From contig QPMI01000110.1 in assembly GCA_004431415.1 (NCBI GenBank), positions 1-46,399 on the forward strand: a stretch of 46,399 nucleotides of DNA. Direction: 5' to 3'. Positions 49-35,973 of the stretch are shown piece after piece. Position 1 is the first letter of the stretch, and every line of letters starts with the position of its first letter. The notes beneath the pieces are model-generated. The model was not told the origin of the DNA and searched no databases. It saw nothing but the letters and a program-made list of their open reading frames with translations. The translations under genes were made by a program, and so were the position numbers. The stretch comes from Cyanophora paradoxa CCMP329 (Eukaryota > Plantae > Glaucophyta).

Positions 49-868
49 TTACAGCGCGTCTCGTCGAGGGCCTCTACCGTCTTCGTAATGTACAGCGCAG
101 CAGATCCTTAAGGTTGCTCTGCGGCAGCAATTTTACGTCTACGTGCATCTGCCTGGCGGTTTCTCGCTTCCTGTAGCCCGTCTCCTCCGCCCCACTGCAT
201 GCCGAGGGCGTCCTTTCTCCGTATCGGCCGCACCGCCGTCTTCTGGTACTCCTCCCCGAACCAGTCGTCCTTGTAGAAATTCGGCAGGCCGCCCTGTCCC
301 TCCGTTTGCATGAACTTGATGAGGAAATCCGACGCCCGCTTGCCGTCGAATTGCACGCGCGAGTAGTGCACCAGCGTGAGCAGGATGTGCGCGTGGAGCC
401 GCCCCGACCGCGGCCCGTACTCGATGCCGATGTTCGCGTTACCCTTCTCCACGTGCGTGTCGTACTGGTCGGACTTGAAATCGAAGCCCTTGGGGTTCGC
501 CTTGTCGGGTACACCCCCATCTTATGCACCGCGCCAGCTGCCTGTCGTCGTAGAAGGGGCCTCCAGCCCCTGTGAAGGCGTCCTGCACCTTGGAGCCTTC
601 TCCCCTGCTCCGCGGCTTGTAGTTGGTCTGGATGGTGATCATGAAATTCGACTCGCGCTGGGCCGTCCTCTCCGTTCAGTTTCCTCACGGGCGCCGCGTC
701 CAGCACCTCTGGAACCACGTCTTGTCGGGCGCCAGCACCTTGTCGTTGATGTTGCCCACCACGATGTGAGTCTCTACCCGGGAGCGGCCGGAGGCGTCCA
801 TGGGAGGTGAGGGTTCGGTGCCGGGCTTGCCTGTTTGCTGCCACGCCCCTCGCGATGAGGTTGAGCAT
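49..868 (-). CDS. HUH-superfamily (rolling-circle Rep-like) endonuclease, frameshifted
   Basis: Joining minus-strand frames gives motif I-like SNFMITIQTN (~620-650), motif II EYGPRSGRLHAHILL (ORF 108..452) and motif III-like ALYITK (~81-98), in the canonical order. Exact ends uncertain. Confidence 0.75.
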
Positions 869-7876: not shown

Positions 7877-7891
7877 ACGCACCCCTAAACC

Positions 7892-9260
7892 ATGGCTTCC
7901 GCGCTCATCTCCACCCCCTCGACCGCCCTGCACCACTCGCTGCGCAGCTCCGACGCGTCGGTGCACGTGCACGAGACCTTCGACACGGCGATGCCGTTCG
8001 TGGACGAGGTGCTCGAGGTGAGCCCCGTGCAGTCGGGCGTGAGCTTCAGCCAGACCGTCGACATCGTCATCCCGCACTCGGCGCCGATGTTCAACGACTC
8101 CTGGCTCAAGGTGACGCTGCCGGCGCTGACGAACGCGGACCACTTCTACATCCCGAAGGCCGGCTACGTGCTGCTCAAGAAGGTGAAGATCTTCGTGGGC
8201 GCGCAGCTGATCCACGAGTACGACGGCCATTACGACGCCATCTACGGCGAGTTCGAGGACGACAAGTCCGTCGTCCAGCACGTCGACATGGTGAACAACC
8301 TCTGGGCGCACCAGCCGCTGCGCCGCCGGGGCAAGGCCCCGAACACGCTGTACATACCGATTCGCATCGCGACGGGCCACGGTCGAAAGTTCGCCGTGCC
8401 GCTCCACAAGCTCCGCTGCTCCGGAAACGACATGAAGCTGCAGATCACGTACGCCTCGCAGAAGGAGGTGACGGCCTCCTTCGTGGACGGCGGCCTGCAC
8501 ACCAACACCAACCTGACGAGCACCGTCAGCCTGGACACCAAGCTCATCCTGCGCTACGTGCACATCGACTCGCGCGAGCTGGCGCTGCACCCGAACTCGT
8601 TCACGTGGGCCGGCAAGTACGTGCAGCACTACCACGTCTCGTTCGAGTCCGGCAAGGCCATCCGCCTGCCCTTCACCGGAATCTGCTACGAGCTGATCAT
8701 CGTGGTGCGCGACAAGCCGCACACCGACAACGGCGAGCACTTCTGGCGCTTCCGCCCGCTCGACAAGATCGAGCTGAAGTGCGACAACATCAAGGTGCTC
8801 GATAGCTCGAACCACGACGCGCACTTCTTGCGCACGGCCATCGCGCACAAGGAGCACACGCACGCCCCGCCCGCAAGCACCTCGAGCTGCTGCGGGCGTG
8901 ACCTCGATGGACGGGACGGCGGCGGCCGACGTGGCCGACGCGCTGCACCCGCACCCGTGGTCGGGCAACGACACGGCCCCCACGACCCTCGCGACCCACG
9001 ACGGGCACAGCAGCGACATCCAGCCCCGCAACGTGGGCCAGTTCGGGACGGAGTTCATCTACTCGCTCCCCTTCGGCACGGACGTGGCCGACAACACCAA
9101 GATGTTCGGCGGCCTCGACATGGGCGCCTTCAAGACCATCGAGCTCACGCTCACCACGCTCAAGACCTACGGCGCGGACAAGCCCGTGGCCGACATCTAC
9201 TGCCGCTACTACAACGAGATCACCTTCACCAACGGCGGCGCCTACCGCCGCTTCCATTAG
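7892..9260 (+). CDS. Major capsid protein (double jelly-roll, NCLDV-like), one frameshift near 8880-8900
   Basis: Beta-rich ~455 aa. Contains WLKVTLPAL, GYVLLKKVKIFVGAQLIHEYDG, LYIPI, LPFTGICYELIIVVR, FIYSLPFG, GGLDMG and YYNEITFTNGG, matching the NCLDV MCP layout. Confidence 0.88.
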
Positions 9261-9339
9261 ATTGCTTGTTAGCCAGGGTGTGCTTGGTAGGCCGATGTGA
9301 ACCAATAAATTTTCCCACTGGGATCCTAACCGAGGCACG

Positions 9340-10464
9340 ATGACGAAGGGCCACTCTATGATGGACATTGGGGAGGGCTCTAAGAAGCAGCGCCAGGCGC
9401 TGAAGAACGACCTGAAGGCCGACATGGACGGCATCGTGAACAAGTTCCTTCCGGGCACGATCATGCCCGAGGTGCCCGTCGTAGATGGAACGAAGGCAGA
9501 CGTCTACACGCCCGAGGACAAGGCGCGGGGCCTGGGGCTCAGCGGGGGGGAAACGAAGACCCTGCCCGCGATGAAGTACACGCCCTCGATGGAGAAGCTG
9601 ATGCGGATGGGCATCCGACAGCAGCTGCAGAACGCGAACCCCGGTCGCACGATCAACGAGGAGGACGTGGAGAACGCGTTCAGCCTGCGGAAGGAAATCA
9701 TGATTCGCGATTTCGACCAGTGGGCGATGACGGCCTTCGACCTGAAGCAGCCGGGCGTCGCCAAAATGCTCGAGGAATATTACCCCGAGCTGCTGGAGCG
9801 AATTACGAACATGATCGAGCAGGATATCGAAATTCAGCGCTTCGACAAGTACCAGAAGGTTTTCTTCCCGATGAACTACGATGATCTCGTCATGAAGTGG
9901 GCGCGCGAGCGCGGCTGGATCAAGACGATGGAAGAGATCGAGAAGGAGAACCTGCTCGGGCCGGCCGGCCGCTACGGGCAGACGGAGGCGAACCCCCAGG
10001 GGCTGCGCGCGGGCTACACCCCCGATCTATCGCCCATGTTCAACGCGCAGACGGCCAACATCAGCAGCGCCGTCAACAAGCCCTACGGCCGCAACGACGT
10101 GGACTTCAGCCGGGGCAATCCGTTTGGGGCGATGCTCCTCGATCAGCCGGGGACGCGCGGCCCGGCCCTGCCGACGGCCATGCCTTACGCGGACCAGAAC
10201 CTGCTGCCCCGCGTCGTCAACCCGCTCCCTGCGCTGCAGGGCAATCAACTTGCCACGCCGTTCCAGAAAGGACGCATGCTAGAGCTCCGCGCTAAAGGAA
10301 CGGTGGCAGGTATGTCCGCTGCATCGCAGACTGCAATTCAGACAGCCTTCCAGTCCATCGTCCGGAACACGGAGAACAACCAGATTGCCATGCTTGCGGA
10401 AACGAACGCCCGGAAGGCGGAGATGTTCGACCAAGCAGCCCAGGCGCTCCGACTCGGTCAGTAA
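9340..10464 (+). CDS. Hypothetical protein, probably virion structural
   Basis: 374-aa intact ORF directly downstream of MCP, with the upstream motif. Confidence 0.75.
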   Translation: MTKGHSMMDIGEGSKKQRQALKNDLKADMDGIVNKFLPGTIMPEVPVVDGTKADVYTPEDKARGLGLSGGETKTLPAMKYTPSMEKLMRMGIRQQLQNANPGRTINEEDVENAFSLRKEIMIRDFDQWAMTAFDLKQPGVAKMLEEYYPELLERITNMIEQDIEIQRFDKYQKVFFPMNYDDLVMKWARERGWIKTMEEIEKENLLGPAGRYGQTEANPQGLRAGYTPDLSPMFNAQTANISSAVNKPYGRNDVDFSRGNPFGAMLLDQPGTRGPALPTAMPYADQNLLPRVVNPLPALQGNQLATPFQKGRMLELRAKGTVAGMSAASQTAIQTAFQSIVRNTENNQIAMLAETNARKAEMFDQAAQALRLGQ

Positions 10465-12500: not shown

Positions 12501-12869
12501 TCAGCCTAGCGCTAGAAAATATTTAAAGGGCGCCCCACCTGACTTCAGCTGAGCGCTCGGGTGATTCAGGTAAAACACGTGTTCAATTCGTCTCACTGGG
12601 GGGGGAAGGGCTTCGATCGCGGCTACGCGAATATTCGAGAGTCTAAATCTGGCGCTGGGGCAGGCGACGGCGTACAGGGTGATCTCGTTCTTGGCGGGAT
12701 TGAGCATGATGTGCTGGAAGCAGTCGCCCTTGCGGCACTCCAGCGAGATGTTGCGCAGCAGCCTGCAGTAGTTGAAGCAGATCTCGCCGTTCTCGTCCAG
12801 ATCCTCTTCCATGGCCTCGTACTCGAAGATGCCGAAGGTCAGGCAGCAGGTGAAGTACTTGGGGCGCAC
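12501..12869 (-). CDS. Hypothetical protein
   Basis: ORF of plausible composition, start codon uncertain. Confidence 0.45.
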   Translation of the reverse strand: MRPKYFTCCLTFGIFEYEAMEEDLDENGEICFNYCRLLRNISLECRKGDCFQHIMLNPAKNEITLYAVACPSARFRLSNIRVAAIEALPPPVRRIEHVFYLNHPSAQLKSGGAPFKYFLALG

Positions 12870-13070
12870 ATTCTCTCGTTGGCTTACGGTTAAAGTGTGA
12901 GGAACCGAGGCCCCGTGCCCCTCTTAAGGCCCCGCGTCAGGTGAGCTTCAGACGAAGTCAGAAAACACGCGTTCAATTTCAGAGGGATACAGAGCCATCA
13001 AGATCAAAGGAAATCATCCTATCGTCAAGGCTAAAGGGGTAGCCGCACTGCTGGTGCAGCTGATCGACCT

Positions 13071-13451: not shown

Positions 13452-13555
13452 GTTGCTTGCTGGTTGCGTTGAGAGAGATTGAGAGTGTGAGGGAACGCCG
13501 CGTGCCGCGTGCTTATAGAGGCCGTTCAGGTGAGGTTCAGGTGAGCGCTCACCTG

Positions 13556-13680
13556 AGGAGGGGGGGGGGAGAAGTGACGCGGACGCGAAAGATTCCGTCA
13601 TGGGTTTTTCCGTCATGGGCTGGAACTTGGACCTGGGACTCGGGCCCAAACTCTCCCGGTAAAAAAATAGATTCGAACTT
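13556..13680 (+). repeat. Repeat copy A (TTCCGTCATGGG x2 + GGACTCG heptamers), outer left arm
   Basis: Direct repeat of ~14460-14526 and reverse complement of ~17657-17773. Confidence 0.9.
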
Positions 13681-13711
13681 GGCGCCATTTTCTGATGCTA
13701 GTCTACCCACC

Positions 13712-14377
13712 ATGGAGCCCGCCATCTCCCAGCTGGTCTCCCAGGGCGCCAAGCTCGACAAGGCCCTCAACATCTACCTTCAGCTGATCGAGCTGGCATG
13801 GCCCGAGCCAATGATTGCCCAGGCCTGCAAATCGCTCCACGTGGCGTTCGATGCGCCGTTCTCAGGTGACCCGGATCAGATGACATCCTGGTCCAAGGAG
13901 GAGATAAAGGCAGACTTTGAGGCGCTTTTCTCATTTATGAGCAAGAAGTATGCCGAAATCGAAGCAGCCAAGGATGCCGAAGCCCAAGGCGGTGAAGATG
14001 CAGAAGCCCCAGAAGCCCCAGCCCAAGGCCCTGCCGGCGACCAAGGCACCGAAGTTCAAGGCGCTGGGCCCCTGCAGAGGGCGAAGGCCAAGGCGGACCT
14101 GCGACCGCGTAGGCCCAAGGACATAGCCAAGGAGGCAAGCGGCCACAGGCCGGACTGGCCGGCGCCGGCGCCCTACCGCTACCTCAAGCTGGACAAGAGC
14201 AACGATACCGGCTTCACCAGGAGGAGGTGGCCTGAGCCTCTCAGGTGGCTGGAGCCAAGGGAGATCAAGGCCGGAGGCAGTATCGAGCTAGCGCTAGCGC
14301 TGGGAGGCGGTGGTGGTGCAGACTTGGAGGAGCAGGCCTTGCTAGATACCATCAACTTGGGCAAGGTAGAGCTGTGA
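13712..14377 (+). CDS. Hypothetical protein lying between repeat copies A and B
   Basis: MEPAISQLV... ORF preceded by CCATTTTCTGA. Confidence 0.55.
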   Translation: MEPAISQLVSQGAKLDKALNIYLQLIELAWPEPMIAQACKSLHVAFDAPFSGDPDQMTSWSKEEIKADFEALFSFMSKKYAEIEAAKDAEAQGGEDAEAPEAPAQGPAGDQGTEVQGAGPLQRAKAKADLRPRRPKDIAKEASGHRPDWPAPAPYRYLKLDKSNDTGFTRRRWPEPLRWLEPREIKAGGSIELALALGGGGGADLEEQALLDTINLGKVEL

Positions 14378-14526
14378 TATCTAGCTAGTGCTTGCTAGCG
14401 CTTGCTTAATTAATTAACCTGAAGTTACCTGACATTTACCTGAAAGGTTGCGGAGGTTGCGGACGCGTCACAATTCCGTCATGGGTTTTCCGTCATGGGC
14501 TGGAACTTGGACTCGGGACTCGGCCG
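14376..14526 (+). repeat. Repeat copy B, inner left arm
   Basis: Reverse complement of 17431-17560 (GATATC...TTAATTAA...CCGTCATGGG...CGGCCG). Confidence 0.9.
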
Positions 14527-17430: not shown

Positions 17431-17560
17431 CGGCCGAGTCCCGAGTCCAAGTTCCAGCCCATGACGGAAAACCCATGACGGAATTGTGACGCGTCCGCAA
17501 CCTCCGCAACCTTTCAGGTAATTAATTAAGCAAGCGCTAGCGCTAGCTAGCTAGATATCG
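17431..17560 (-). repeat. Repeat copy C, inner right arm (its other part, 14721-14754, is separated by the LTR element)
   Basis: Inverted copy of B. 14721-14754 plus 17434 onward reconstitutes the sequence seen intact at 17657-17740. Confidence 0.9.
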
Positions 17561-17656
17561 ATACCACCTACTTAGTACTACTTAGTACTACTAGGACACT
17601 AGGACACTAGGACTCTGGGACACTAGGGCATTTGGACATAGGGGGTACCCCGCCGA

Positions 17657-17773
17657 GTTCAAGTCTCGAACTTACCAGGAGAATTCCCGGCCGAGTCCCG
17701 AGTCCAAGTTCCAGCCCATGACGGAAAACCCATGACGGAATCTTTTGCGTCCGCGTCATTTCTCCCCCCTCCT
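17657..17773 (-). repeat. Repeat copy D, outer right arm
   Basis: Inverted copy of A, including GCGTCCGCGTCA.TTCTCCCCCC. Confidence 0.9.
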
Positions 17774-20381: not shown

Positions 20382-21700
20382 TCAGTGGTGCAGGTGCCGG
20401 AAGCGCGCGTTGTCCTCGGCCTCCTCGCGCGCCGCCTGCTCCTCCGCCGCGTCGATCTTTGCCCGCGAGGCCTCGCGCGCCGCCCGCCTTGCGTACGAGG
20501 TGGGCACCGGCGCCCGCCGGTAGCTGTAGCCGAGGCCCTTCGCCAGCTCCACGGTCCCGTCCTCGAACGCCCGCCAGCTCTCCACGGCCTCCGCCGCGCT
20601 CATCCGCTCCGCGCGGAAGCCCGCCTCCAGCTCGGCGCGGAAGGCGGTGGCCTCCTGCAGGCGCTGGGCCCAGAGGCCCTGGCGCCGCGCCTCCGCCTCG
20701 CGCGCCTGGCGCGCCGCCAGCGCCCGCCGCTCGGCCCCCTGCTGGGCCCCGAAGCCCATGATCGCGCTGAGGATGGCGCCGGGGCCGGGGATGAACGCGT
20801 CCGGGTCGGGAGCGGCGGCGAAGGCGGCGGGGACGGGGCTGCGGTCGGCGAGGGAGAAGGGGACGGGGCTGGGGCCGGCGCCGTCGGAGGGGGCCGAGCT
20901 CCCGTAGCCGCTCGGGCCCGCGCCGCCGTTCGCCGGGGTACCCTGCCCTTGGATCAGGAGGGGGGCGAGGGGAGGGGGGGTACAGGGAAGGCGGGGGGTA
21001 CGCGGGGCCGGACCTGGCGCGGCAGCATCTCGTCGATGCGCTGCTGGCCGGCGTGCTGCTGGCCGGCGTGCTGCTGGCCGTGCGAGGAGGAGGGCGGCGG
21101 GGGCGGGACGAAGGCGGGGGCCGAGTTGCGGGTGCGCTTGCCCCTGCCGCGGATCGAGGCCTTGACGGGGAAGGGGCCGTTCTCCGGGTCCGCCGGCTCG
21201 AAGAACTGGATGGCCTGCAGCGCCGGCTGGCTCTCGCCGAGGGAGAGGGGGCCTTGGGGACGATGCCGCGGATGTAGGTCTGCCAGATGCCGCCGGCCCT
21301 GTAGGAGAAGAGGCGGCACCTGGGGCCGAAGGCGGCGATGGTCTCGTCCAGCTCGCCGTTCTCGACGTCGGCGGCGACGGCGGCGGCGGCGTCCGGGCCC
21401 TCCGTGCGCGAGATGTACTCGCAGATGCCCGCCACGCTCGTCATGCCGCCCTCCGTCTCCGAGCCGACGAGGTAGGTGGTGGGGTCGACGACGCAGTGGG
21501 TGATGACGAAGCGGGTGAGGGTGCAGGAGGCCGTCTCCTGCCAGAAGGCGAGGCGCTTCGCCCGCAGCCACACCGGCTCGAAGGACTGGATGCAGGAGGC
21601 CTGGCGGCCACCTGCGGCGCGGGCGACGTTAGCGCGTACGACGTCGGGACGGGCGGGAAGGTGCGCGGCTTCGAATCCAGCGGCTCCCCGCGAAGCTGCC
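20382..21700 (-). CDS. Hypothetical protein: globular N-part, Pro-rich middle, coiled-coil C-terminus (multiple frameshifts, start undefined)
   Basis: Coherent segments in ORFs 20083..21573, 20954..21571 and 20382..20759. Confidence 0.45.
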
Positions 21701-22753
21701 TGCGGCCCAGTGAGCGTGCTGCGAGCGGGAGGTGGGAGGGATTGGGCGGGCGGGCCTGCGTCCAGCGCTGAAACGTAGCTCCACTGATGCTATCCGCGAT
21801 GCGCGTAGCCCGCGACTGGCTGCGGACAAGGGAGGGCTTAGCTAGGACAAGAACGGGTGTGGGGCGCGGGCTGGAGGCGCGGGGAGGCGAGCCGGAGCCG
21901 CCGAATCGATGCGCGGGCTTGAGAACGAGATCTAGAAGCGTGCGCAAGTCGCCGCGAACGTCGGCTCGAGTTGCGGAAGGCGCGGCGGCCAATCTCGGCA
22001 CCTGCTCAGAGACCAAATGTCAGCGGACGCGGGCGAATCGAGCGCGAGGTTGCGGGACATGTTCTAGGTGCTAAATGCAAGGATAGAGCGGCAAGAGAGC
22101 GAGCTGGCACCTGCGGGATGCGGCGGAGTGCTCCGGCTCGGGCGCCATCGAGCTTTCGAAGGTCCGCGGCCGGCGCGAGCGACCCTGCGCGTGGCGGCGT
22201 GAGTGCGGCGTCGAGAGAGCTTTCCAGCGCCCAAAATCTGAGGTCCGGAGCTAGCCGTGGTGCGGAGAAAGAGGTTGCGAAGTGAGGCGCACCTCCGAAT
22301 CGAAAGGAGCGAGGCGGCGGCTCTCCGGGCTGAGCGGAATGCAAGCTAGTGCCTCTGGCAAGTGCTGCAAGGAGCGCTGGGCCCGGGCGCTGCGAGATGC
22401 GCTGCCCGGGCGCTTTTTTTCGGGTTGGGGTACTGTGTTTTGAGTCGAAACACGTGGAGCAACCGCGTGAGCCCAAAACTTTCTGAGCTTAGGAGCAAAG
22501 GCGGTCGAGCGCTCGGCCGCGCAAGCTAGCTCCGGCGCGCTCTGCCTTCTCTCTACACGTGTCGCATTCGCGTGCGCTCAAAACTTTCTAAGCTTCGGTC
22601 AAGCAAGGGGCTAGCGCTTCCGAAGTTCTACGCGCGCGCCTCCCCGTCCGCCGGGCCGACGGTCTGCGCGTCACATCGTCCGCTGCGCCAAGAAGGAGAG
22701 ATCAAGACGGTGTCAACCGGGTCTAGTTGAGCGCTTAAGGTCGGACCAAAGCC

Positions 22754-22803
22754 TGTCCCGACCCTCCCAGATCTTTAAATTAATATCTCAGAAGGTCGAG
22801 ACA
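22754..22803 (+). repeat. 50-bp palindrome with AT-rich centre (duplicate copy)
   Basis: TGTCCCGACCCTCCCAGAT-CTTTAAATTAAT-ATCTCAGAAGGTCGAGACA. Confidence 0.9.
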
Positions 22804-22893
22804 GCAGTCCAGACGTCGACTATAGCTAGCCAACAGACGTCGACTAGCCTAGTAGATCTAGAATTTTCCAAGCCTAGCTATAGAGAGACGACC

Positions 22894-24052
22894 ATGGCAA
22901 CCGGACGCGTGTCTCTCGACGTCGACGCCTTCCTGGCCCGTATGCCCGGGCCCGGGTACAGCAGATAGATCTGAGCGAGCAGGAGTGCAGCTTTTTCGTT
23001 CGATTCCCTCTCGTCGAAGTCCAGAAGGCCTGCAGCCCGACCCTGGGACGGCTTTCTGCGTCTTCCACCCGCCCTGCATCACCCCAGCCACTTCTCGGGT
23101 GCCGAGGATGAGACGAGCACTGCGGCAGCCTGCGCCTTTGCAACCAAGTTCGGAGGCTTCACTTTCTCTCGCCCCTTGGATAATGGATTCAAGGCTGCCT
23201 ACGTCCTACAGAGCCCGGAGGCTTGCGATCTCATGGCATGGTTCTTTGGGAGCTCGAGCGGCCTGGAGCTCGGTGTGGATGGCACCGGGGGCTACGTTCT
23301 GCGGGGGCCGGCGCCCGGGCCGCGAGCGGAGCTCCTCCCCACTCCATCCAGAAGCTCGGCGCCCCGCGCTAAGCCCATCCCGGAGCCGGGCGCTCTCCTG
23401 GATTCGAGCCCAAGCCTGCCGGCCTTGGAGCGGCTCCTGGACCGCCTACGCAAGAACAAGGCGGTGAGGGACGAGATCTGGAAGGCGGGGGCAGAGCTGC
23501 GCGCGGACCTTGGCCTGCACGACGCCCGCCGCGTTCAGCACCTTGGAGTCGAGCCCGACGGGTCCATCACCCTCGTCCTGGGCGGGAGTCAGCCGGGGGC
23601 GCCGGCGGCTCGAATCTCCATCCAGGCGCACGGTATTGAAGTCGAGCTCGAGGGGGAGGGGACCGGAGGGGAGTCGGGCAGCGTGGCACAGACCCGCTAT
23701 GTGACCGATCCCTCGCAGCCTGTCGCCTTCGACATTGCCCTCCCCTCCCTCCTGATCGCGCTCGAGTCGACGGGCCTGGAGGCTTGCGTCAATGCAGTGG
23801 ATGAACGCCACCTCTCGTGCAAGATCCTTACCTCCGCATTCGGGGCGCTGGAGCAGAACCCGAGATCCGCTCAGCCGCAGGTCGACGTCATCTGCTCGGG
23901 ACTCAACACGGGGAAGACGCAGGCGCTGATCGATGCGTACCTGGACCCGGCCCTTGCAGGCGGCTGGCGAGTGATCCTCGTGACTTGCCGCCGGGCCTTC
24001 TCCCGCGACCTCAAGCGTCGCATTGATGCTGCGGAGTTGTCAAAGGACGCCG
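22894..24052 (+). pseudogene. 5'-only duplicate of the helicase gene, truncated after motif Ia
   Basis: Same as 25373 onward up to ELSKDA, then runs into duplicated upstream sequence. Confidence 0.8.
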
Positions 24053-25232
24053 GCTCGAAGGACTGGATGCAGGAGGCCTGGCGGCCACCTGCGGCGCGGG
24101 CGACGTTAGCGCGTACGACGTCGGGACGGGCGGGGAAGGTGCGCGGCTTCGAATCCAGCGGCTCCCCGCGAAGCTGCCTGCGGCCCAGTGAGCGTGCTGC
24201 GAGCGGGAGGTGGGAGGGATTGGGCGGGCGGGCCTGCGTCCAGCGCTGAAACGTAGCTCCACTGATGCTATCCGCGATGCGCGTAGCCCGCGACTGGCTG
24301 CGGACAAGGGAGGGCTTAGCTAGGACAAGAACGGGTGTGGGGCGCGGGGCTGGAGGCGCGGGGAGGCGAGCCGGAGCCGCCGAATCGATGCGCGGGCTTG
24401 AGAACGAGATCTAGAAGCGTGCGCAAGTCGCCGCGAACGTCGGCTCGAGTTGCGGAAGGCGCGGCGGCCAATCTCGGCACCTGCTCAGAGACCAAATGTC
24501 AGCGGACGCGGGCGAATCGAGCGCGAGGTTGCGGGACATGTTCTAGGTGCTAAATGCAAGGGATAGAGCGGCAAGAGAGCGAGCTGGCACCTGCGGGATG
24601 CGGCGGAGTGCTCCGGCTCGGGCGCCATCGAGCTTTCGAAGGTCCGCGGCCGGCGCGAGCGACCCTGCGCGTGGCGGCGTGAGTGCGGCGTCGAGAGAGC
24701 TTTCCAGCGCCCAAAATCTGAGGTCCGGAGCTAGCCGTGGTGCGGAGAAAGAGGTTGCGAAGTGAGGCGCACCTCCGAATCGAAAGGAGCGAGGCGGCGG
24801 CTCTCCGGGCTGAGCGGAATGCAAGCTAGTGCCTCTGGCAAGTGCTGCAAGGAGCGCTGGGCCCGGGCGCTGCGAGATGCGCTGCCCGGGCGCTTTTTTT
24901 CGGGTTGGGGTACTGTGTTTTGAGTCGAAACACGTGGAGCAACCGCGTGAGCCCAAACTTTCTGAGCTTAGGAGCAAAGGCGGTCGAGCGCTCGGCCGCG
25001 CAAGCTAGCTCCGGCGCGCTCTGCCTTCTCTCTACACGTGTCGCATTCGCGTGCGCTCAAAACTTTCTAAGCTTCGGTCAAGCAAGGGGCTAGCGCTTCC
25101 GAAGTTCTACGCGCGCGCCTCCCCGTCCGCCGGGCCGACGGTCTGCGCGTCACATCGTCCGCTGCGCCAAGAAGGAGAGATCAAGACGGTGTCAACCGGG
25201 TCTAGTTGAGCGCTTAAGGTCGGACCAAAGCC

Positions 25233-25282
25233 TGTCCCGACCCTCCCAGATCTTTAAATTAATATCTCAGAAGGTCGAGACA
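25233..25282 (+). repeat. 50-bp palindrome upstream of the helicase gene
   Basis: Same element, 90 bp before the ATG. Confidence 0.9.
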
Positions 25283-25372
25283 GCAGTCCAGACGTCGACT
25301 ATAGCTAGCCAACAGACGTCGACTAGCCTAGTAGATCTAGAATTTTCCAAGCCTAGCTATAGAGAGACGACC

Positions 25373-28300
25373 ATGGCAACCGGACGCGTGTCTCTCGACG
25401 TCGACGCCTTCCTGGCCCGTATGCCCGGGCCCGGGGTACAGCAGATAGATCTGAGCGAGCAGGAGTGCAGCTTTTTCGTTCGATTCCCTCTCGTCGAAGT
25501 CCAGAAGGCCTGCAGCCCGACCCTGGGGACGGCTTTCTGCGTCTTCCACCCGCCCTGCATCACCCCAGCCACTTCTCGGGTGCCGAGGATGAGACGAGCA
25601 CTGCGGCAGCCTGCGCCTTTGCAACCAAGTTCGGAGGCTTCACTTTCTCTCGCCCCTTGGATAATGGATTCAAGGCTGCCTACGTCCTACAGAGCCCGGA
25701 GGCTTGCGATCTCATGGCATGGTTCTTTGGGAGCTCGAGCGGCCTGGAGCTCGGTGTGGATGGCACCGGGGCTACGTTCTGCGGGGGCCGGCGCCCGGGC
25801 CGCGAGCGGAGCTCCTCCCCACTCCATCCAGAAGCTCGGCGCCCCGCGCTAAGCCCATCCCGGAGCCGGGCGCTCTCCTGGATTCGAGCCCAAGCCTGCC
25901 GGCCTTGGAGCGGCTCCTGGACCGCCTACGCAAGAACAAGGCGGTGAGGGACGAGATCTGGAAGGCGGGGGCAGAGCTGCGCGCGGACCTTGGCCTGCAC
26001 GACGCCCGCCGCGTTCAGCACCTTGGAGTCGAGCCCGACGGGTCCATCACCCTCGTCCTGGGCGGGAGTCAGCCGGGGCGCCGGCGGCTCGAATCTCCAT
26101 CCAGGCGCACGGTATTGAAGTCGAGCTCGAGGGGAGGGACCGGAGGGGAGTCGGGCAGCGTGGCACAGACCCGCTATGTGACCGATCCCTCGCAGCCTGT
26201 CGCCTTCGACATTGCCCTCCCCTCCCTCCTGATCGCGCTCGAGTCGACGGGCCTGGAGGCTTGCGTCAATGCAGTGGATGAACGCCACCTCTCGTGCAAG
26301 ATCCTTACCTCCGCATTCGGGCGCTGGAGCAGAACCCGAGATCCGCTCAGCCGCAGGTCGACGTCATCTGCTCGGGACTCAACACGGGGAAGACGCAGGC
26401 GCTGATCGATGCGTACCTGGACCCGGCCCTTGCAGGCGGCTGGCGAGTGATCCTCGTGACTTGCCGCCGGCCTTCTCCCGCGACCTCAAGCGTCGCATTG
26501 ATGCTGCGGAGTTGTCAAAGGACGCCGTGCTTTACATGGACATCAAGAAGCCACCGGAGAGCTCAAAGGGATCGCATGGCAAGTGGGGCTTCCGCCATGA
26601 GGAGTGCAGGTGCGTCGTCATCACATGGGACTCGCTGCACAAGGTGCTCGAGGACTGGGAGGGCTGGTCGACGGCGCCGCTACTGGTCGTGCTGGACGAG
26701 CTCTCCTCCCTCACGAAGCACCTCACCTCGAGCGGCACCCTCGAGCCCACCGGCCTGCACCTAGGTATGCGGTCAGTGCCTCGAAACGCGCGCTGCGTGG
26801 GCCTATGGCGCGGCGTGATGAAGGCATCGCGCATCGTGGCGATGGACGGCTTCGTTCGGTCGGTCGATCTCGCGTACCTGGCAGAGTCGGCGCAGGAGGT
26901 CGGGGCGCGCCTGGGGCTCCTGTACAACTCGCATCGCACCTGCGACTGGAAGATGCGCGTGTCAGACAGCCCGGCGCACGTCGAGGCGGACATCATGGCG
27001 CTGTGCAGACCGGGGCGCTGCCGGGCGATGATCATTGCAGAGACGCCGGCCAAGGCGATCGAGATGCAGGAGAAGATTGCGAAGCAGGCGCTGGAGCAGC
27101 TCAGCCTGGGCGGCGCTCAGTACGTGACTCAGCTCGAGGCAGGGCCCGAGGACGGCAGCGGCGCACCGTTCACGATCGGGCTCATCGTTGGGCAGGCCAA
27201 GGAGAAGAGCGTGCGCTTCACGAACGACGGCCCAGTGCGCATCGTGTCGATCGATGTGTCTGAGGAGGGCGCGTACAAGGCCTGCGACGTGCTCATCGCA
27301 ACTTCCGCGCTCGGGGCAGGCGTGGACTTTTCGGACGCGCACTTTGACAAGGTCTACGGCGTGTTCCAGGCAGAGCCCGCGCAGCTGGAGGCGGACGACA
27401 TCGTGCAGCTGCTGTTTCGAGTCAGAAGGCTGCGCAAACGCAGCACGCCCGACGGAGAGCACCTGCTCGTCGCCGTGCGCAAGAACCGGACGCCCTCGGT
27501 TGCGGTCGGCGCGGCGGCTGCGCACTGGCGTGAGAGCGACGACGACGAGAGCTCGGACGACATGCAGCGCTACCTGGACCTGAAGGCTAGCCACCGCGGG
27601 AGCCGCCGCGCCGGCATGCCCACTCGGCGCCTCGCAGTGGCAGCGCGCCTGCGGCTGATGTCGACCTGCGCGCTGATGAACGTGCAAGTCACGGAGGATC
27701 AAAACCGAGCGGACCGAAGCAGGAGAAGGAGCAGCGGCTGCGCGAGATCAGGAGCGTGCTGGAGGCGGGCGCGCTGGAGCCCGTCGATCTGTGGAGCACG
27801 GTGCTGGCCTGGAGGCAGTCCCGCGAGTCTCTCGCTAAGCTGGACATCGAGAAGGTTGCTTCGCTTGCTCGCACGTCGATCGCCGCGTTCCTGGCCAAGG
27901 ATCCGAGCGAGCTGACCGAAGGAGACGTCGCCTGGATGTGGGATTCGTTCTACTCCATCCCGCTCACTGCCGTGGTCACGCTGGTGCTGAAGCATGGCGC
28001 GGACGTTGCCGAGATCGTGCCTACTGCTGAGCGCCTCAAGGTATCGAAGGTCGTCGCGCTGTTCAAGAAACTCTTCGGCTGGCGGGGTATGGAAAGCTCG
28101 CGGGGCGTGCTCTGTGGTCGGACGAAGCCTACGCGGCCCTGGCGTCGCCGGAGGGTCGGGAGGCGTACGCGGCTCTGCAGAGTCTGGACGAGCGCGCGCC
28201 CCGCTTCGATGCAGCGGACGGTGAGAAGAAGCGGCTCTCGCAGCAGTCTTGGCAAGTCATCAAGTACCTGCTGGAGAAGTACCTCGGAGTGAGACGCGCT

Positions 28301-28540
28301 TTCTCCGACGCGGACGGAGGGCAAATGGGCAGCCGAAAGCGACGCTACATCACGTGGGAGGAAGACATGCTCGACGACGCAGTAGAGCGCCAGGCTAAGC
28401 AGGCAAGGGCAGGCATGGCGCCAAGCTTCCCAGAGGTTTACAACGTTTCTCCGACTGCTATGCTCTCATTCACAGGCGCGTGTGATTGTCGGATGTCACA
28501 GTGTGGACTTCGCGAACGGGATGCGCGTGCCAGTGTGTAA
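25373..28540 (+). CDS. UL9/origin-binding-protein-like SF2 helicase with long N-terminal domain (several frameshifts)
   Basis: SGLNTGKT (I), VILVTCRRAFS (Ia), VVITWDSLHK (Ib), VVLDEL (II), IVAMDG (III), VLIATSALGAGVDF..HFDKVY (V) and QLLFRVR (VI), a pattern typical of UL9-like helicases. Confidence 0.8.
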
Positions 28541-28586
28541 ATACGAACGTGCGAATTCAAGTGACGTCATGCATATGATCAATGAA

Positions 28587-28636
28587 TGTCTCGACCTTTT
28601 GAGATATTAATTTAAAGATCTGGGAGGGTCGGGACA
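28587..28636 (-). repeat. 50-bp palindrome downstream of the helicase gene, inverted orientation
   Basis: Reverse complement matches 25233-25282 with one mismatch. Confidence 0.9.
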
Positions 28637-28920
28637 TTGCGAGGGCGGACGAGAGTGAGGGCATGCACTCTCTATGTGTCCCGACCTTTTCTGAACAACT
28701 CATGATTGCCGTATCATCGATCTGCATTTACTCACTTCGTTCTCTGTCGCTTGCACATGCGCGGTGTGGGATTACTAATTAGATCTAGTCTCCCTAGCCC
28801 TCTGCGGCCGCCTTCCTGCCCCCCTGCAAAGAGCAGCTCAACCAAATCCTGTGGGGTCTGATTCATTGCAGACTCGCCTTCCCCGCCTGGGCCTGAGCTA
28901 CACCAAGCTACGGTGAGTCC

Positions 28921-29268
28921 GACCAAGAGACGTGTCCGGACCCTCCCTACTTTCTTTATAGATTATTGGAAAGGTCCGGACACTAGAGGAGGGAGGGCGT
29001 ACATAAGTAGTCTGACCAAGAGACGTGTCCCGACCCTCCCAGATCTTTAAATTAATATCTGAGAGGGTCGAGACACTAGAGGAGGGCGTACATAAGTAGT
29101 CTGACCAAGAGACGTGTCCCGACCCTCCAGATCTTTAAATTAATATCTGAGAGGGTCGAGACACTAGAGGAGGGCGTACATAAGTAGTCTGACCAAGAGA
29201 CGTGTCCCGACCCTCCCAGATCTTTAAATTAATATCTGAGAGGGTCGGGACACTAGAGGAGGGCGTAC
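28921..29268 (+). repeat. Tandem array of four ~89-bp units, each carrying the 50-bp palindrome
   Basis: Palindromes at 28933-28982 (divergent), 29026-29075, 29115-29163 and 29203-29252, with near-identical spacers. Confidence 0.93.
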
Positions 29269-29887
29269 GACTTAAACTCGCGCAGCGCCGCCTGCTCCTC
29301 GCTGAGGTTCTCTGACTTCATTCGATCGCTGTAGGGCTCGGGCGGAGTTCCAGCCTTCACGTGCATCCAAAATAGATGTAAGCACCGCCGCATGAGCTCG
29401 ATGTACCTCTCGTCCCGTCTGACGTACCACGTTTGCACGCGCAGAGGCGTGAAACAGAAAAGTTCGGCCCAGTCGCGGCCCGTTATGTCCAGCAGGCCCT
29501 GAAGTTGAGTCATGTAATAGGTAGGAACGCTATCGTAAAGTTCGCCCTTGTAAGGGCATTTCACCTCTAAAATCCTATCATTTCCTATCAGTCCGTCGGG
29601 GCTCCCGGCGAGGAACGGCATTTCTTTGTGTTCGTGCAGTCCAGTGTGTTGAATGTCCACGTTATCGTTCAGTGCCTTGTAGATAGAGACCGCGAGGGGC
29701 TCGTAGTCGTGCCCGTAGGTTAGGGCAGGGTTGTCAAAGTTGTTTTCCTCCGCGATCCGCTCAGCTCCGCCCAGAGGCGGGCCCTGGATTTCCACGGGTT
29801 GATGCCGCACGCGGCGGCAAAGTTCGAGGCGGTTAGCTTTTCGCGGCGCGCAGCGTGCCACGCCGCGCTCCCCTGTTGTAGGTCCAT
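29253..29887 (-). CDS. YqaJ/lambda-type PD-(D/E)XK exonuclease (one frameshift)
   Basis: QGSAAWHAARREKLTASNF, YGHDYEPLA, FLAGSPDGL, LEVKCPY and YYMTQLQGLLDI. Confidence 0.93.
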
Positions 29888-29939
29888 AGCTCGTAGCCTC
29901 GCAGTAGCGTTTAGAATTTCTCGTTGTGTGCAATTGCAA

Positions 29940-30625
29940 ATGTCGGATGACGAAGATTCGAGCCCGGTCCCGCAGATGGACGAAGATTCGAGCCCCGAAG
30001 AGTTCCTGACTCGCGTTAGGGGCCTGGCCCATTGGATACGAGATAAGTTCAAGGAGGGGATGCGAAATCGGATAGGAACGTCGTCCTTTCCGCTGAGGGG
30101 GCTAGCCCCTGTTGCAGCCCAGGGGCTGCGGGATACCGTGAGGCTCGCCCCCCATCCTATGATCGGAACTGGGACTTCAGCAGTGTGCTTACGTCCCTGT
30201 ACGTGGCGCTGATGTCGCCTAGAAGCCGCGTGGCCCGTCTGCCGAACGAGGCCAGATTGAAGATCATGAACTTCTTACTCGCAGGTAGAGACGGGCGCGA
30301 AGGCGATGTGATCAATGGGCTTCGAAATGAGATACAGTGGTACATGCGTACAGGCGAAGGCGGTGTCCGACAGTACGACGGCTCACGGTACACAGAGCTC
30401 GAGATTCCACGCGAGCTCGTACCCCGGAGCTGGCAAGAGCTTCCGCCCGCCCCACCCCCGCCCCCCGCCTACGTATCCCCCTTTGACTCGAGGCCCCCCA
30501 TCAACGAGCGCAAGCGACTGCGCGACTGGCTGCAGGACGATCGAAACCGTCTGCCGGTGAGGCAAAGGTCGGCACTATACCCCCAGAGGAGGAGGCGTAC
30601 CCCGTTTTCGAGAACAATCGCCTGA
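29940..30625 (+). CDS. Hypothetical protein, paralogue family member 1 (F-box-like LP motif), frameshifted
   Basis: EEFLTRVRGLAHWIRDKF and SRVARLPNEARLKIMNFL. Confidence 0.6.
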
Positions 30626-30680
30626 CGTGGAGGTGGACGTGATAGGGGGTACGGGTAGATATTCTCAGCGAGCCGCGAGC

Positions 30681-31432
30681 ATGGCGCGGACACGCGAGTC
30701 CGACGTGCTGTACAACAACGGCCCCATCATCGTGAGATCCTACAGCGGACCGTGGACTTGGACGACGCACAATCCGATCTGCACCGGCGGCGATGGGCGA
30801 TGGGCCCCGATTCGGGGAGCGGATCGCCCGGGGAGAACTTTATGGAACGCGTGCTGTACCTCGTGCGCTGGATACGAGATAAGTTTAACGACGATCAAGA
30901 GTTTCCAGATCAAAACACCATCGGCGCAGCACGTTTCATGGGTATGACGATCAATCCACGCAATCATGGCAGGCGAGAACGCAGGGATCTGAACGGCGAT
31001 TGGGCGGACCTACAAGCACTGTGGATGGCCTTTGCGAACCGCAAGAGCCAGATCCTCGCTCTGCCCGCGCGGGTGCAGGAGCGTATCATTGACTTTGTGG
31101 CACCGTGGCGCTTCGAGAGCCTTGACCCGCAGACTGTGCAGCCCCGCTTCCTCAGACGACTGCGAAACGCCTTCTACCACCTGGCGCTGAGCGACGGCCA
31201 GTACTTCACGCCTCAGAGAATCGATCACGGTGAATTCGGTATACCCCCCGAGTGGGCAAACTTTGGCATGGTACCCCCGCCGCGGCCCCTCCTCTACGGC
31301 CCCCCCTCCCCCTCACCTGAGCAGCGTGAGTCACTCAAGCGTCAGAGGGAGGTACGCGAATGGATGGACGACACCAGTCACTGGGTACAGGGCGAGGCCG
31401 AGTTACGCAAGTTCGCTAGGCTCGGGCAGTAA
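30681..31432 (+). CDS. Hypothetical protein, paralogue family member 2, frameshifted
   Basis: ENFMERVLYLVRWIRDKF and SQILALPARVQERIIDFV. Confidence 0.6.
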
Positions 31433-32990: not shown

Positions 32991-33063
32991 TTTGGGCCGG
33001 GGTAGAGAAAATAAATGCGAAAAGGCCGAAAAGTGCGTTTTTCACGCGTGAAATCGATCGAAA

Positions 33064-33112
33064 ACTTGGGACTTGGGACTTGGGACTTGGGACTTGGGAC
33101 TTGGGACTTGGG
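33064..33112 (+). repeat. (ACTTGGG)7 heptamer array in a divergent promoter region
   Basis: Seven perfect units. Confidence 0.95.
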
Positions 33113-33170
33113 AAGAGTTAAAATCAGAGTCTGGACCCAAAAGCGGGGAAATTTTCGGACGGGGAGAAAA

Positions 33171-33641
33171 ATGTCAGGCAATCTCTATTACGATTTTCCC
33201 TTTGAGTTGAATATGGCATTCGAAAGGTTGCGCGAGTTCTGGCGTTGGCACCTCACGGGACATGACATCCCCGACGTAACACCAGAGCCCAACTTACAGG
33301 GCGTGCTTGAAGTCATCCGTCAATATCCGCGTCGATTCAATGAATGGATTGAGTTCCACGCGACGAGCCGTTTCCAGAGCCTCCCCGAGGCCATACGCGA
33401 AAATTTCGTGAGGCTGGTGGGACCAGGCTACGACAACCCTAACAATCATAGACCACGCCCAGCTGGCGTGACACGCGAAGCTCGAGAAGACCGTAGACTT
33501 TTCCGCAGGGAATTGAGAGAGGATAGACGGAGGCTTTCAATGGGGCTCCCGCAGATTGTGAGGGGGTACAGCCCGGATTACGAGACTTACCAAGAATTGT
33601 ACGGCTTCGAAAATCCCTTTGAGAGGGCACTACCAGGGTGA
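33171..33641 (+). CDS. Hypothetical protein, possible distant member of the LP-motif family
   Basis: SRFQSLPEAIRENFVRLV, with upstream AAATTTTCGG. Confidence 0.6.
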   Translation: MSGNLYYDFPFELNMAFERLREFWRWHLTGHDIPDVTPEPNLQGVLEVIRQYPRRFNEWIEFHATSRFQSLPEAIRENFVRLVGPGYDNPNNHRPRPAGVTREAREDRRLFRRELREDRRRLSMGLPQIVRGYSPDYETYQELYGFENPFERALPG

Positions 33642-35086: not shown

Positions 35087-35577
35087 GACCTTGGTGCTCG
35101 GACCTTGGGGCTTGGTGCTTGGGCTTGGGCTTGGTGCTTTGGAAGCGTTACTCTCAGAGTCTGGGTCCAGACTTTCTCTGGATCTGCGAGTTTGCCGCGC
35201 CAAGTCATTAACCATCGGGCAGACTTAGAAAGGGGTACTGCATTTTGCATACGACGTTTCCGGTGACATTCCAGGTGAGATTTCGAGAGAGGTAGAGTCT
35301 GAAATGTCGACAGAGTTTTCGAGAGCGATTTCAAGCGAGATGTCAAGAGACAGAGGGTACGAGAAGTCGTAAGAGTAAAAAAGACTACGAGTAAAAAAGA
35401 GTATGAGGGGTGGTACGACTAAAAAAGACTACGAGTAAAAAAAGTCCGTAGAAAAACTCACCTGACTTGTCTGACAAATTTCTGATCCTGGAGAAAGTCT
35501 GGGCCGGGACCCTGAGAGAAACGCTTCCAAAGCACCAAGCACCAAGCACCAAGGTCCGAGCACCAAGGTCCAAGGTC
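35087..35577. repeat. ~95-bp inverted repeats (35087-35186 / 35484-35577) around a ~300-bp spacer with direct repeats
   Basis: GACCTTGGTGCTCGGACCTTGG..TTGGAAGCGTT.CTCTCAG and its reverse complement. AAAAAAGACTACGAGTAAAAAA occurs twice in the spacer. Confidence 0.88.
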
Positions 35578-35609
35578 CCCGGTCGAACATTTTCTGAGCC
35601 TAGGGCAAA

Positions 35610-35973
35610 ATGGCCCTGCTCAAGTGCACCGACTCCCGCGACCTGCCCTACAACGTCCTGGTCAACTCGGACGTGCCCGGAGTGCGATGGAGTTTCCCTG
35701 GCGACTGGACAGGGGCAGGGTGACCAAGACCTTCGGGAGGCGCAAGCACTACCTCTCCCAGCTCATCCTCGGAAGCCGCCACGTGGACTGTACGTGGAGC
35801 ACATCAACGGCAACCCGCTGGACTACAGGAGGGAGAACCTGCGCTGGGTATCGATGTCGGAGATCCAGAAGAAGAGGAGGGAGGGTACGAGCCTGCAGCA
35901 GAAGAGCGAGGAGATTGCGGAGATGATGGAGGCAGCGCAGGCGCTGGTGCAGCTCAGCCAGTCTAGACGCTAG
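35610..35973 (+). CDS. HNH endonuclease (frameshifted)
   Basis: YVEHINGNPLDYRRENLRWV, with upstream ACATTTTCTGAG. Confidence 0.75.

Follow-up and report, generated by a model that had tools for sequence, protein, structure and literature searches.

Palindromes around a UL9-like helicase gene in a mriyavirus-like element of Cyanophora paradoxa as candidate promoters of a spliced antisense RNA

Background

The window analysed here, a stretch of 46,399 nucleotides (nt) on contig QPMI01000110.1 of the glaucophyte alga Cyanophora paradoxa CCMP329 (assembly GCA_004431415.1), contains a helicase gene that lies between two copies of a 50-bp imperfect palindrome, the second in inverted orientation, with a four-unit array of related palindromes further downstream. 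The arrangement raises the question of what the palindromes do for the element that carries them. A preliminary description of this DNA proposed that they are replication origins recognised by the helicase, in the manner of the herpesvirus origin oriS and its binding protein UL9, and that gene and palindromes form a self-contained, possibly exchangeable or invertible cassette. We find a spliced antisense RNA read from the bracketed helicase interval, and this points to a promoter role for the palindromes. In the reading that we favour, with a probability of roughly 0.55, the palindrome is a directional TATA-type promoter whose downstream copy (R) starts the spliced antisense RNA, which represses the helicase, and whose upstream copy (L) serves the helicase mRNA.

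RNA contigs over the helicase gene

The gene for a superfamily 2 (SF2) helicase occupies 25373 to 28495 of the plus strand, its end being approximate, and has about 1040 codons. Over this gene we compared assembled contigs from two RNA-type runs (X15 and X18, from two studies) and two DNA runs; the classification of the runs as RNA is guesswork, and the strand was read from splice signals. Contigs of the RNA-type runs lack 12 introns, each bounded by GT..AG when the minus strand is read, all within 25926 to 27714 (25926-25988, 26058-26110, 26253-26308, 26368-26416, 26504-26554, 26761-26877, 26946-27010, 27106-27166, 27282-27342, 27412-27462, 27518-27573 and 27666-27714). Among the 15 joints listed out of 26, ten are labelled CT..AC, two more resolve to CT..AC and none is GT..AG, the other three being two pieces of a paralogue and a shifted duplicate of an intron already counted. 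Neither DNA run gives any depth to the joints of the 12 introns. Eleven of these joints occur in the lists of both RNA-type runs, and the twelfth in that of one run. Lengths fall between 49 and 65 nt for 11 of the 12, and a branch-point-like pentamer is likewise present in 11. At four intronic positions (25928, 26074, 26999 and 27704) there is no RNA contig in either run, so that the contigs include no unspliced RNA that would encode the helicase.

The antisense RNA extends over about 25240 to 28590 of the minus strand, with its main 3' end perhaps near 25650. Once spliced, the minus strand has 13 to 22 stops per frame, and its longest ATG frame, of 235 amino acids, is preceded by at least seven upstream ATGs; because of these counts the RNA is likely to be non-coding, and an antisense protein gene is disfavoured. 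A loose contig end at 23962 (X15 and X18) corresponds, with 7 of 21 letters different when compared by eye, to the intron-4 junction and suggests that this intron is spliced out in a diverged paralogue too.

The boundary of this RNA on the side downstream of the helicase probably lies at R. Contig depth inside the interval, set against that outside, is 614 to 4.7 in X15, 1744 to 6.5 in X18, 254 to 37 in X17 and 1194 to 27-208 in X19, a fall seen in all four RNA-type runs, whereas the depth of DNA contigs is flat there (838 to 915 and 2402 to 2392). Contig ends are a weak hint: one X17 contig terminates at 28590, which on the minus strand lies 26 nt beyond the first T of the TTTAAA in R. The main fall in X19, at about 28500-28530, fits thinning cover of a 5' end and would be compatible as well with a start deeper inside the interval. 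On the side of L, depth falls at L in X15 and is high only down to about 25650 in X18.

A YqaJ-type (lambda) exonuclease gene lies convergent to the helicase gene, on the minus strand at 29253 to 29890 (start approximate, frame broken; PF09588, E 1.6e-14), with its stop codon abutting the last palindrome of the array. A plus-strand GT..AG intron antisense to it, at 29378 to 29444, is carried by a contig of a paralogous copy in one of two RNA-type runs (the X17, X19 set), and the model built from the helicase introns scores this held-out joint at 8.0. Three strong intron-like sites lie antisense to YqaJ between 29253 and 29975, one of them spliced in the paralogue. The gap between the two convergent genes may give rise to antisense RNAs of both. 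The lack of RNA contig cover at 29952-30600 was not counted as a finding.

Palindromes and promoter signals

Palindrome L (25233 to 25282, plus strand), a putative promoter, has TTTAAA at 25253, with the ATG of the helicase 120 nt further on, and palindrome R (28587 to 28636, minus strand), identical to L at 49 of 50 positions, has it at 28616-28611. The array (28916 to 29268, plus strand; period about 89 bp, 3.9 copies) holds palindromes at 28933-28982, 29026-29075, 29115-29163 and 29203-29252, spaced 93, 88 and 89 nt apart, the third being 49 nt long, and a box related to GTC(C/T)GACC precedes each of the four. All six copies named in the preliminary description, including the inverted R and the 89-bp array, were located as claimed, but the count is incomplete, since a scan of the window yielded a seventh, identical to L, at 22754-22803 within a duplication. 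The palindromes are also real as palindromes, although the 19-bp arms ascribed to them are imperfect, with 14 to 18 Watson-Crick pairs of 19 (L 15, R 14, others 14, 17 and 18). They are not a product of chance, because only 11 of 46,349 stretches of 50 nt reach 14 or more pairs, six of the 11 being these palindromes, and because the fold z-scores of ten palindrome strands are low (-2.1 to -8.9). Three sub-threshold matches of the array to microRNA families in Rfam were attributed to hairpin chance and rejected.

How the copies vary is informative about their constraints. The outer arms of the divergent array unit do pair, as had been described, over a perfect 10 bp, but it departs from the unit at 29203 by a single compensated pair (positions 6/45). 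In other genomic copies, loose contig ends have arm positions 8-10 altered on both sides, if both ends belong to one unit, and this co-variation supports the earlier view that the arms pair. Such ends also show the canonical unit, in other copies, as an 86-bp array that has a flank of the L type. A length of about 50 and the ends TGTCC..GGACA/AGACA are kept. Positions 11-15 of the left arm are fixed while the right arm varies, and for this reason we regard the palindrome as directional. Run X2 contains another element family, equal in contig depth, which has the sequence from 28809 onward, array included, but differs upstream of it.

TATA-like hexamers also stand 45 to 62 nt before three other start codons (12522, 12923 and 13512). 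The genes are on the minus strand, and the hexamers have CAGGTGAG-type motifs nearby (12515-12560, 12915-12985 and 13505-13560); a promoter type shared by the three is likely.

The mechanism that we propose relies on host polymerase II and the spliceosome, because introns are present and mriyaviruses, the group that the element resembles (see below), lack a viral RNA polymerase. Host RNA polymerase II would start about 25 nt past the TTTAAA of R, which points back at the helicase, and the resulting RNA would traverse the gene in antisense, while L would be the helicase promoter, pointing into the gene. Convergent transcription or RNA-directed silencing would then lower the helicase and keep the replication protein off in a probably endogenous element. 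The arms could also bind a viral replication protein, which would make the palindrome promoter and origin in one, as in the baculovirus homologous regions (hrs).

The helicase and the surrounding element

The helicase carries a Walker A motif GLNTGKT and a Walker B motif VVLDE. Its frame is open for 1040 codons from 25373, with X at each of nine breaks, which fall mostly where short-read contigs have one extra letter. The UL9-like profile PF02399 matches it with E 1.7e-4 over 57 residues and exceeds the cut-off for the window frame and three of six homologues scanned, and herpes UL9 chains are its sole matches in the PDB (E 0.011-0.015). The likeness is confined to the first helicase motifs (positions 47-161 of the 820 in the profile) and a faint stretch at motifs V-VI. 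Profile and fold searches gave no UL9-type C-terminal origin-binding domain, the two structure models being of low confidence (predicted local distance difference test, pLDDT, 36.6 and 39.3), with fold searches that returned generic helicase matches or nothing. The earlier label of a UL9-like helicase thus holds for the SF2 core; as judged from sequence, the protein appears UL9-like in its helicase motifs, with origin binding only a candidate function.

L and the start of the gene lie in a tandem duplication of about 2.48 kb (21570 to 26531), which contains the seventh palindrome and a truncated 5' copy of the helicase gene. Its halves (21570-24055 and 24047-26531) are 99.4% identical, with one substitution and 13 single-base gaps, and share a 9-bp microhomology at the junction. 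The duplication is either a recent event or an assembly artefact: no contig among those listed bridges the junction at 24047, and both halves share letters unlike the short-read contigs and therefore represent one haplotype. As the palindrome at 22754 sits in the duplication, the left bracket of the helicase is part of a larger repeated block.

The window is likely a mriyavirus-like element, that is, a small DNA virus probably integrated in the genome of the alga. This assignment is by gene set. A scan with Pfam gave a match to the major capsid protein of nucleocytoplasmic large DNA virus type at 7889-9340 (PF16903, E 1.2e-7), an A32 ATPase just under the cut-off (PF04665, E 1.2e-4), an A22/RuvC resolvase (PF04848, E 6.7e-7) and a VLTF3-like gene, for which adjacent frames match PF04947 below the cut-off (E 0.008) and a TFIIB zinc ribbon (E 1.7e-6). 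DNA polymerase families had no match in the 37 window frames scanned, shorter frames being only partly covered. A gene for an HUH-motif endonuclease (108 to 868, minus strand, frame broken) lies in the same element, 25 kb from the helicase; it was recognised by motif match, with motifs I-III in its homologues reading FMITIQT, LHAH and YITK, whereas a profile search gave no match. As far as the available text of PMC11253617 describes them, Mriyaviricetes (a subset of Yaraviridae having a UL9-related SF2_hel) resemble the window in the capsid, A32, A22 and VLTF3-like genes, in the HUH-motif and SF2 helicase genes, in having no DNA polymerase found and in a size of about 46 kb. They differ in that the window helicase is so diverged that protein searches match it to no mriyavirus protein, that its N-terminal part has no primase match and that the window element is multi-copy in a named glaucophyte proteome. 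The terms 'palindrom' and 'inverted repeat' are both absent from the main text of PMC11253617.

Twelve homologues of the helicase were found, all of them named C. paradoxa proteins in EukProt; they are spread over 12 contigs, with identities of about 99%, 73% and 53%. A further candidate, P0007, was dropped as spurious (25% identity, repetitive, 2516 amino acids). The HUH gene has 17 homologues in EukProt and one protein in ENA. Because helicase and HUH homologues sit among the EukProt glaucophyte proteins, with the helicases on 12 contigs, the sequences suggest a multi-copy endogenous element in C. paradoxa or close kin. No relatives of the element were found among viral contigs (searches with palindrome patterns, helicase, ATPase and HUH protein) or among metagenome contigs (helicase and HUH searches).

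Elsewhere in the window, phrases such as LPARVQERII / LPEAIRENFV recur in several related-looking open reading frames that have no match in Pfam (30047-31432 and 33015-33641), and an HNH_3 gene (35593-35970) is preceded by seven ACTTGGG repeats and a degenerate inverted pair of 7-mer repeats (33064-33113, 35087-35184, 35484-35574). Inverted repeats at 13561-14526 and 17431-17772 (91 bp perfect, about 150 bp in total, with a doubled 12-mer TTCCGTCATGGG in four copies) enclose 2.9 kb that lacks codon bias and bears 344-bp direct repeats (14755 and 17087). These repeats may mark the ends of a genome, belong to an insertion or form an origin that competes with the palindromes.

Alternative explanations

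An origin role for the palindromes, whether alone or combined with that of promoter, is in our view possible but less likely than not. Taken as the whole explanation, with transcription a by-product or second function, origins that are either oriS-like and bound by the UL9-like helicase or dispersed in the manner of hrs seem rather unlikely, although the geometry proposed earlier, inverted arms around an AT-rich core, was borne out by folding and by the counts of arm pairs. In the accessible part of PMC13261067, oriS of herpes simplex virus (HSV) type 1 has two boxes around an 18-bp AT spacer, comparable to the two GC-rich arms around an AT core seen here near a UL9-like SF2 helicase, and a third related box beside the left arm, which the window also has. 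The palindromes moreover adjoin the sole helicase found in the element, keep their length and ends, and recur in the 86-bp arrays of other copies. Unlike oriS, they number at least seven, some of them arrayed, and one faces the gene from downstream; their arms vary among copies, at positions 8-10 in a manner unlike a fixed binding box, and the helicase resembles UL9 only over profile positions 47-161 and in no detectable C-terminal domain, by profile or by low-confidence models (pLDDT 37-39). There is no skew switch in 1-kb windows, and the repeat-rich tracts at 13561-14526 and 17431-17772 are competing candidates. Baculovirus hrs, tandem 64-bp repeats with imperfect palindromes in the portion of PMC4535591 at hand, act as origin and enhancer and so offer a parallel both to the units of the window (86-89 bp), each with an imperfect palindrome, and to the double role in replication and transcription proposed for them, whereas the window copies cluster at one gene pair, where the solitary ones mirror each other; no relation by sequence is expected.

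That the palindrome is instead a strand-specific DNA hairpin for the HUH endonuclease (rolling-circle or resembling repetitive extragenic palindromes), or an RNA hairpin that marks 3' ends, we consider improbable. In the window copies all five distinct transition-type mismatch positions give G-T on the same strand, on which R comes after the stop codon of the helicase gene and the array adjoins that of YqaJ, and the loose ends imply three more compensated pairs (positions 8-10), if both ends belong to one unit; the 3' ends of mimivirus transcripts are reportedly polyadenylated at palindromes (PMC4402537). Yet in the variant of the other copies one G-T falls on the opposite strand, arm co-variation can come from conversion between arms without selection, other genes have no such hairpins after their stops, and most X18 RNA depth ends at about 25650, short of L. 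Nicking of an AT-rich loop by an HUH protein had been suggested from the start; the element does encode a protein with HUH motifs, though 25 kb away, but the loop sequence and AT cores differ among units, with no conserved nicking nonamer or fixed nick site. Least probable of all, we think, is that noise accounts for the antisense RNA, with readthrough of one integrated copy from a cryptic start and with splicing because an intron-dense host splices any GC-rich transcript, the palindromes being unrelated to it. RNA contigs do carry a letter at 27372 that DNA contigs lack, genes rich in GC at third codon positions (GC3) have many antisense GT/AG words (raw pairs 223 on the minus and 195 on the plus strand), and giant-virus-derived regions of C. 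paradoxa are reported as methylated, with methylated genes mostly silent, in the part of PMC12344493 available. Against noise stand the removal of the same intron in a diverged paralogue, the depth change at R in all four RNA-type runs, and an excess of strong intron signals of about 20-fold over genes of similar GC3 (0.80-0.97 against 0.86): six occur in 1.79 kb (leave-one-out) against three in 19.1 kb antisense to 17 other window genes and none on the sense strands of those genes (binomial p 2.7e-5), and 13 of the 16 strong sites of the whole minus strand lie inside helicase copies.

An exchangeable cassette finds no support, because the depth of DNA contigs is the same inside and outside both brackets, at L (628 to 669 and 2258 to 2373) as at R. 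No target duplication was seen around the bracketed interval among the loose ends listed, and a miniature inverted-repeat transposable element was rejected on that ground. The orientation of 25233-28636 lies beyond assembled contigs, whose resolution the 37 identical arm bases exceed.

Several observations weigh against the promoter reading itself. L and R are 49/50 identical, yet only the product of R is seen. A plus-strand spliced RNA of a paralogue seemingly begins upstream of the array and splices it out (a loose end at 29334 matches 28896-28910), so that array units need not be promoters. The hairpin of one strand is the more stable in all four copies folded both ways, and this bias, together with the compensated arms, calls for a structural or binding role beyond that of a TATA promoter. 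The other three RNA contig ends at R (28620, 28629 and 28629) may be breaks in the assembly graph, and contigs are uninformative on strand, start or level. The intron enrichment is partly circular, since model and threshold were derived from these introns. RNA contigs also differ from the window at several letters, at 27372 from the DNA contigs too, and the source of the antisense RNA may be another copy, perhaps with a favourable host neighbourhood.

Conclusions

Spliced antisense transcripts that accompany viral latency include the latency-associated transcript (LAT) of HSV and the HBZ RNA of human T-cell leukaemia virus type 1. Like them, the RNA described here is spliced and antisense to a key viral gene in a virus that is seemingly quiet; unlike them, it has twelve short introns opposite one coding sequence, its target is a replication helicase, its host is an alga and the promoter proposed for it mirrors the element that stands upstream of the helicase gene itself. 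It is a speculative and, on balance, doubtful further step to suppose that a single 50-bp element links the start of replication to sense expression and to silencing in antisense, as a latency switch encoded by the virus itself, with host-type introns opposite the helicase. Each part has a precedent, in the SF2 helicases of mriyaviruses, the palindromes of oriS and hrs, and antisense latency RNAs; a literature search, with subscription papers mostly outside its reach, found no report of the combination or of twelve introns opposite one viral coding sequence. The quiescence of viruses integrated in protists is mostly ascribed to host methylation, and the spliced antisense RNA, if the promoter reading is true, would be control exerted by the virus, directly testable in a cultured algal host. 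For mriyaviruses, whose mode of replication has so far been inferred from gene content, the palindromes offer a concrete candidate for an origin or a promoter.

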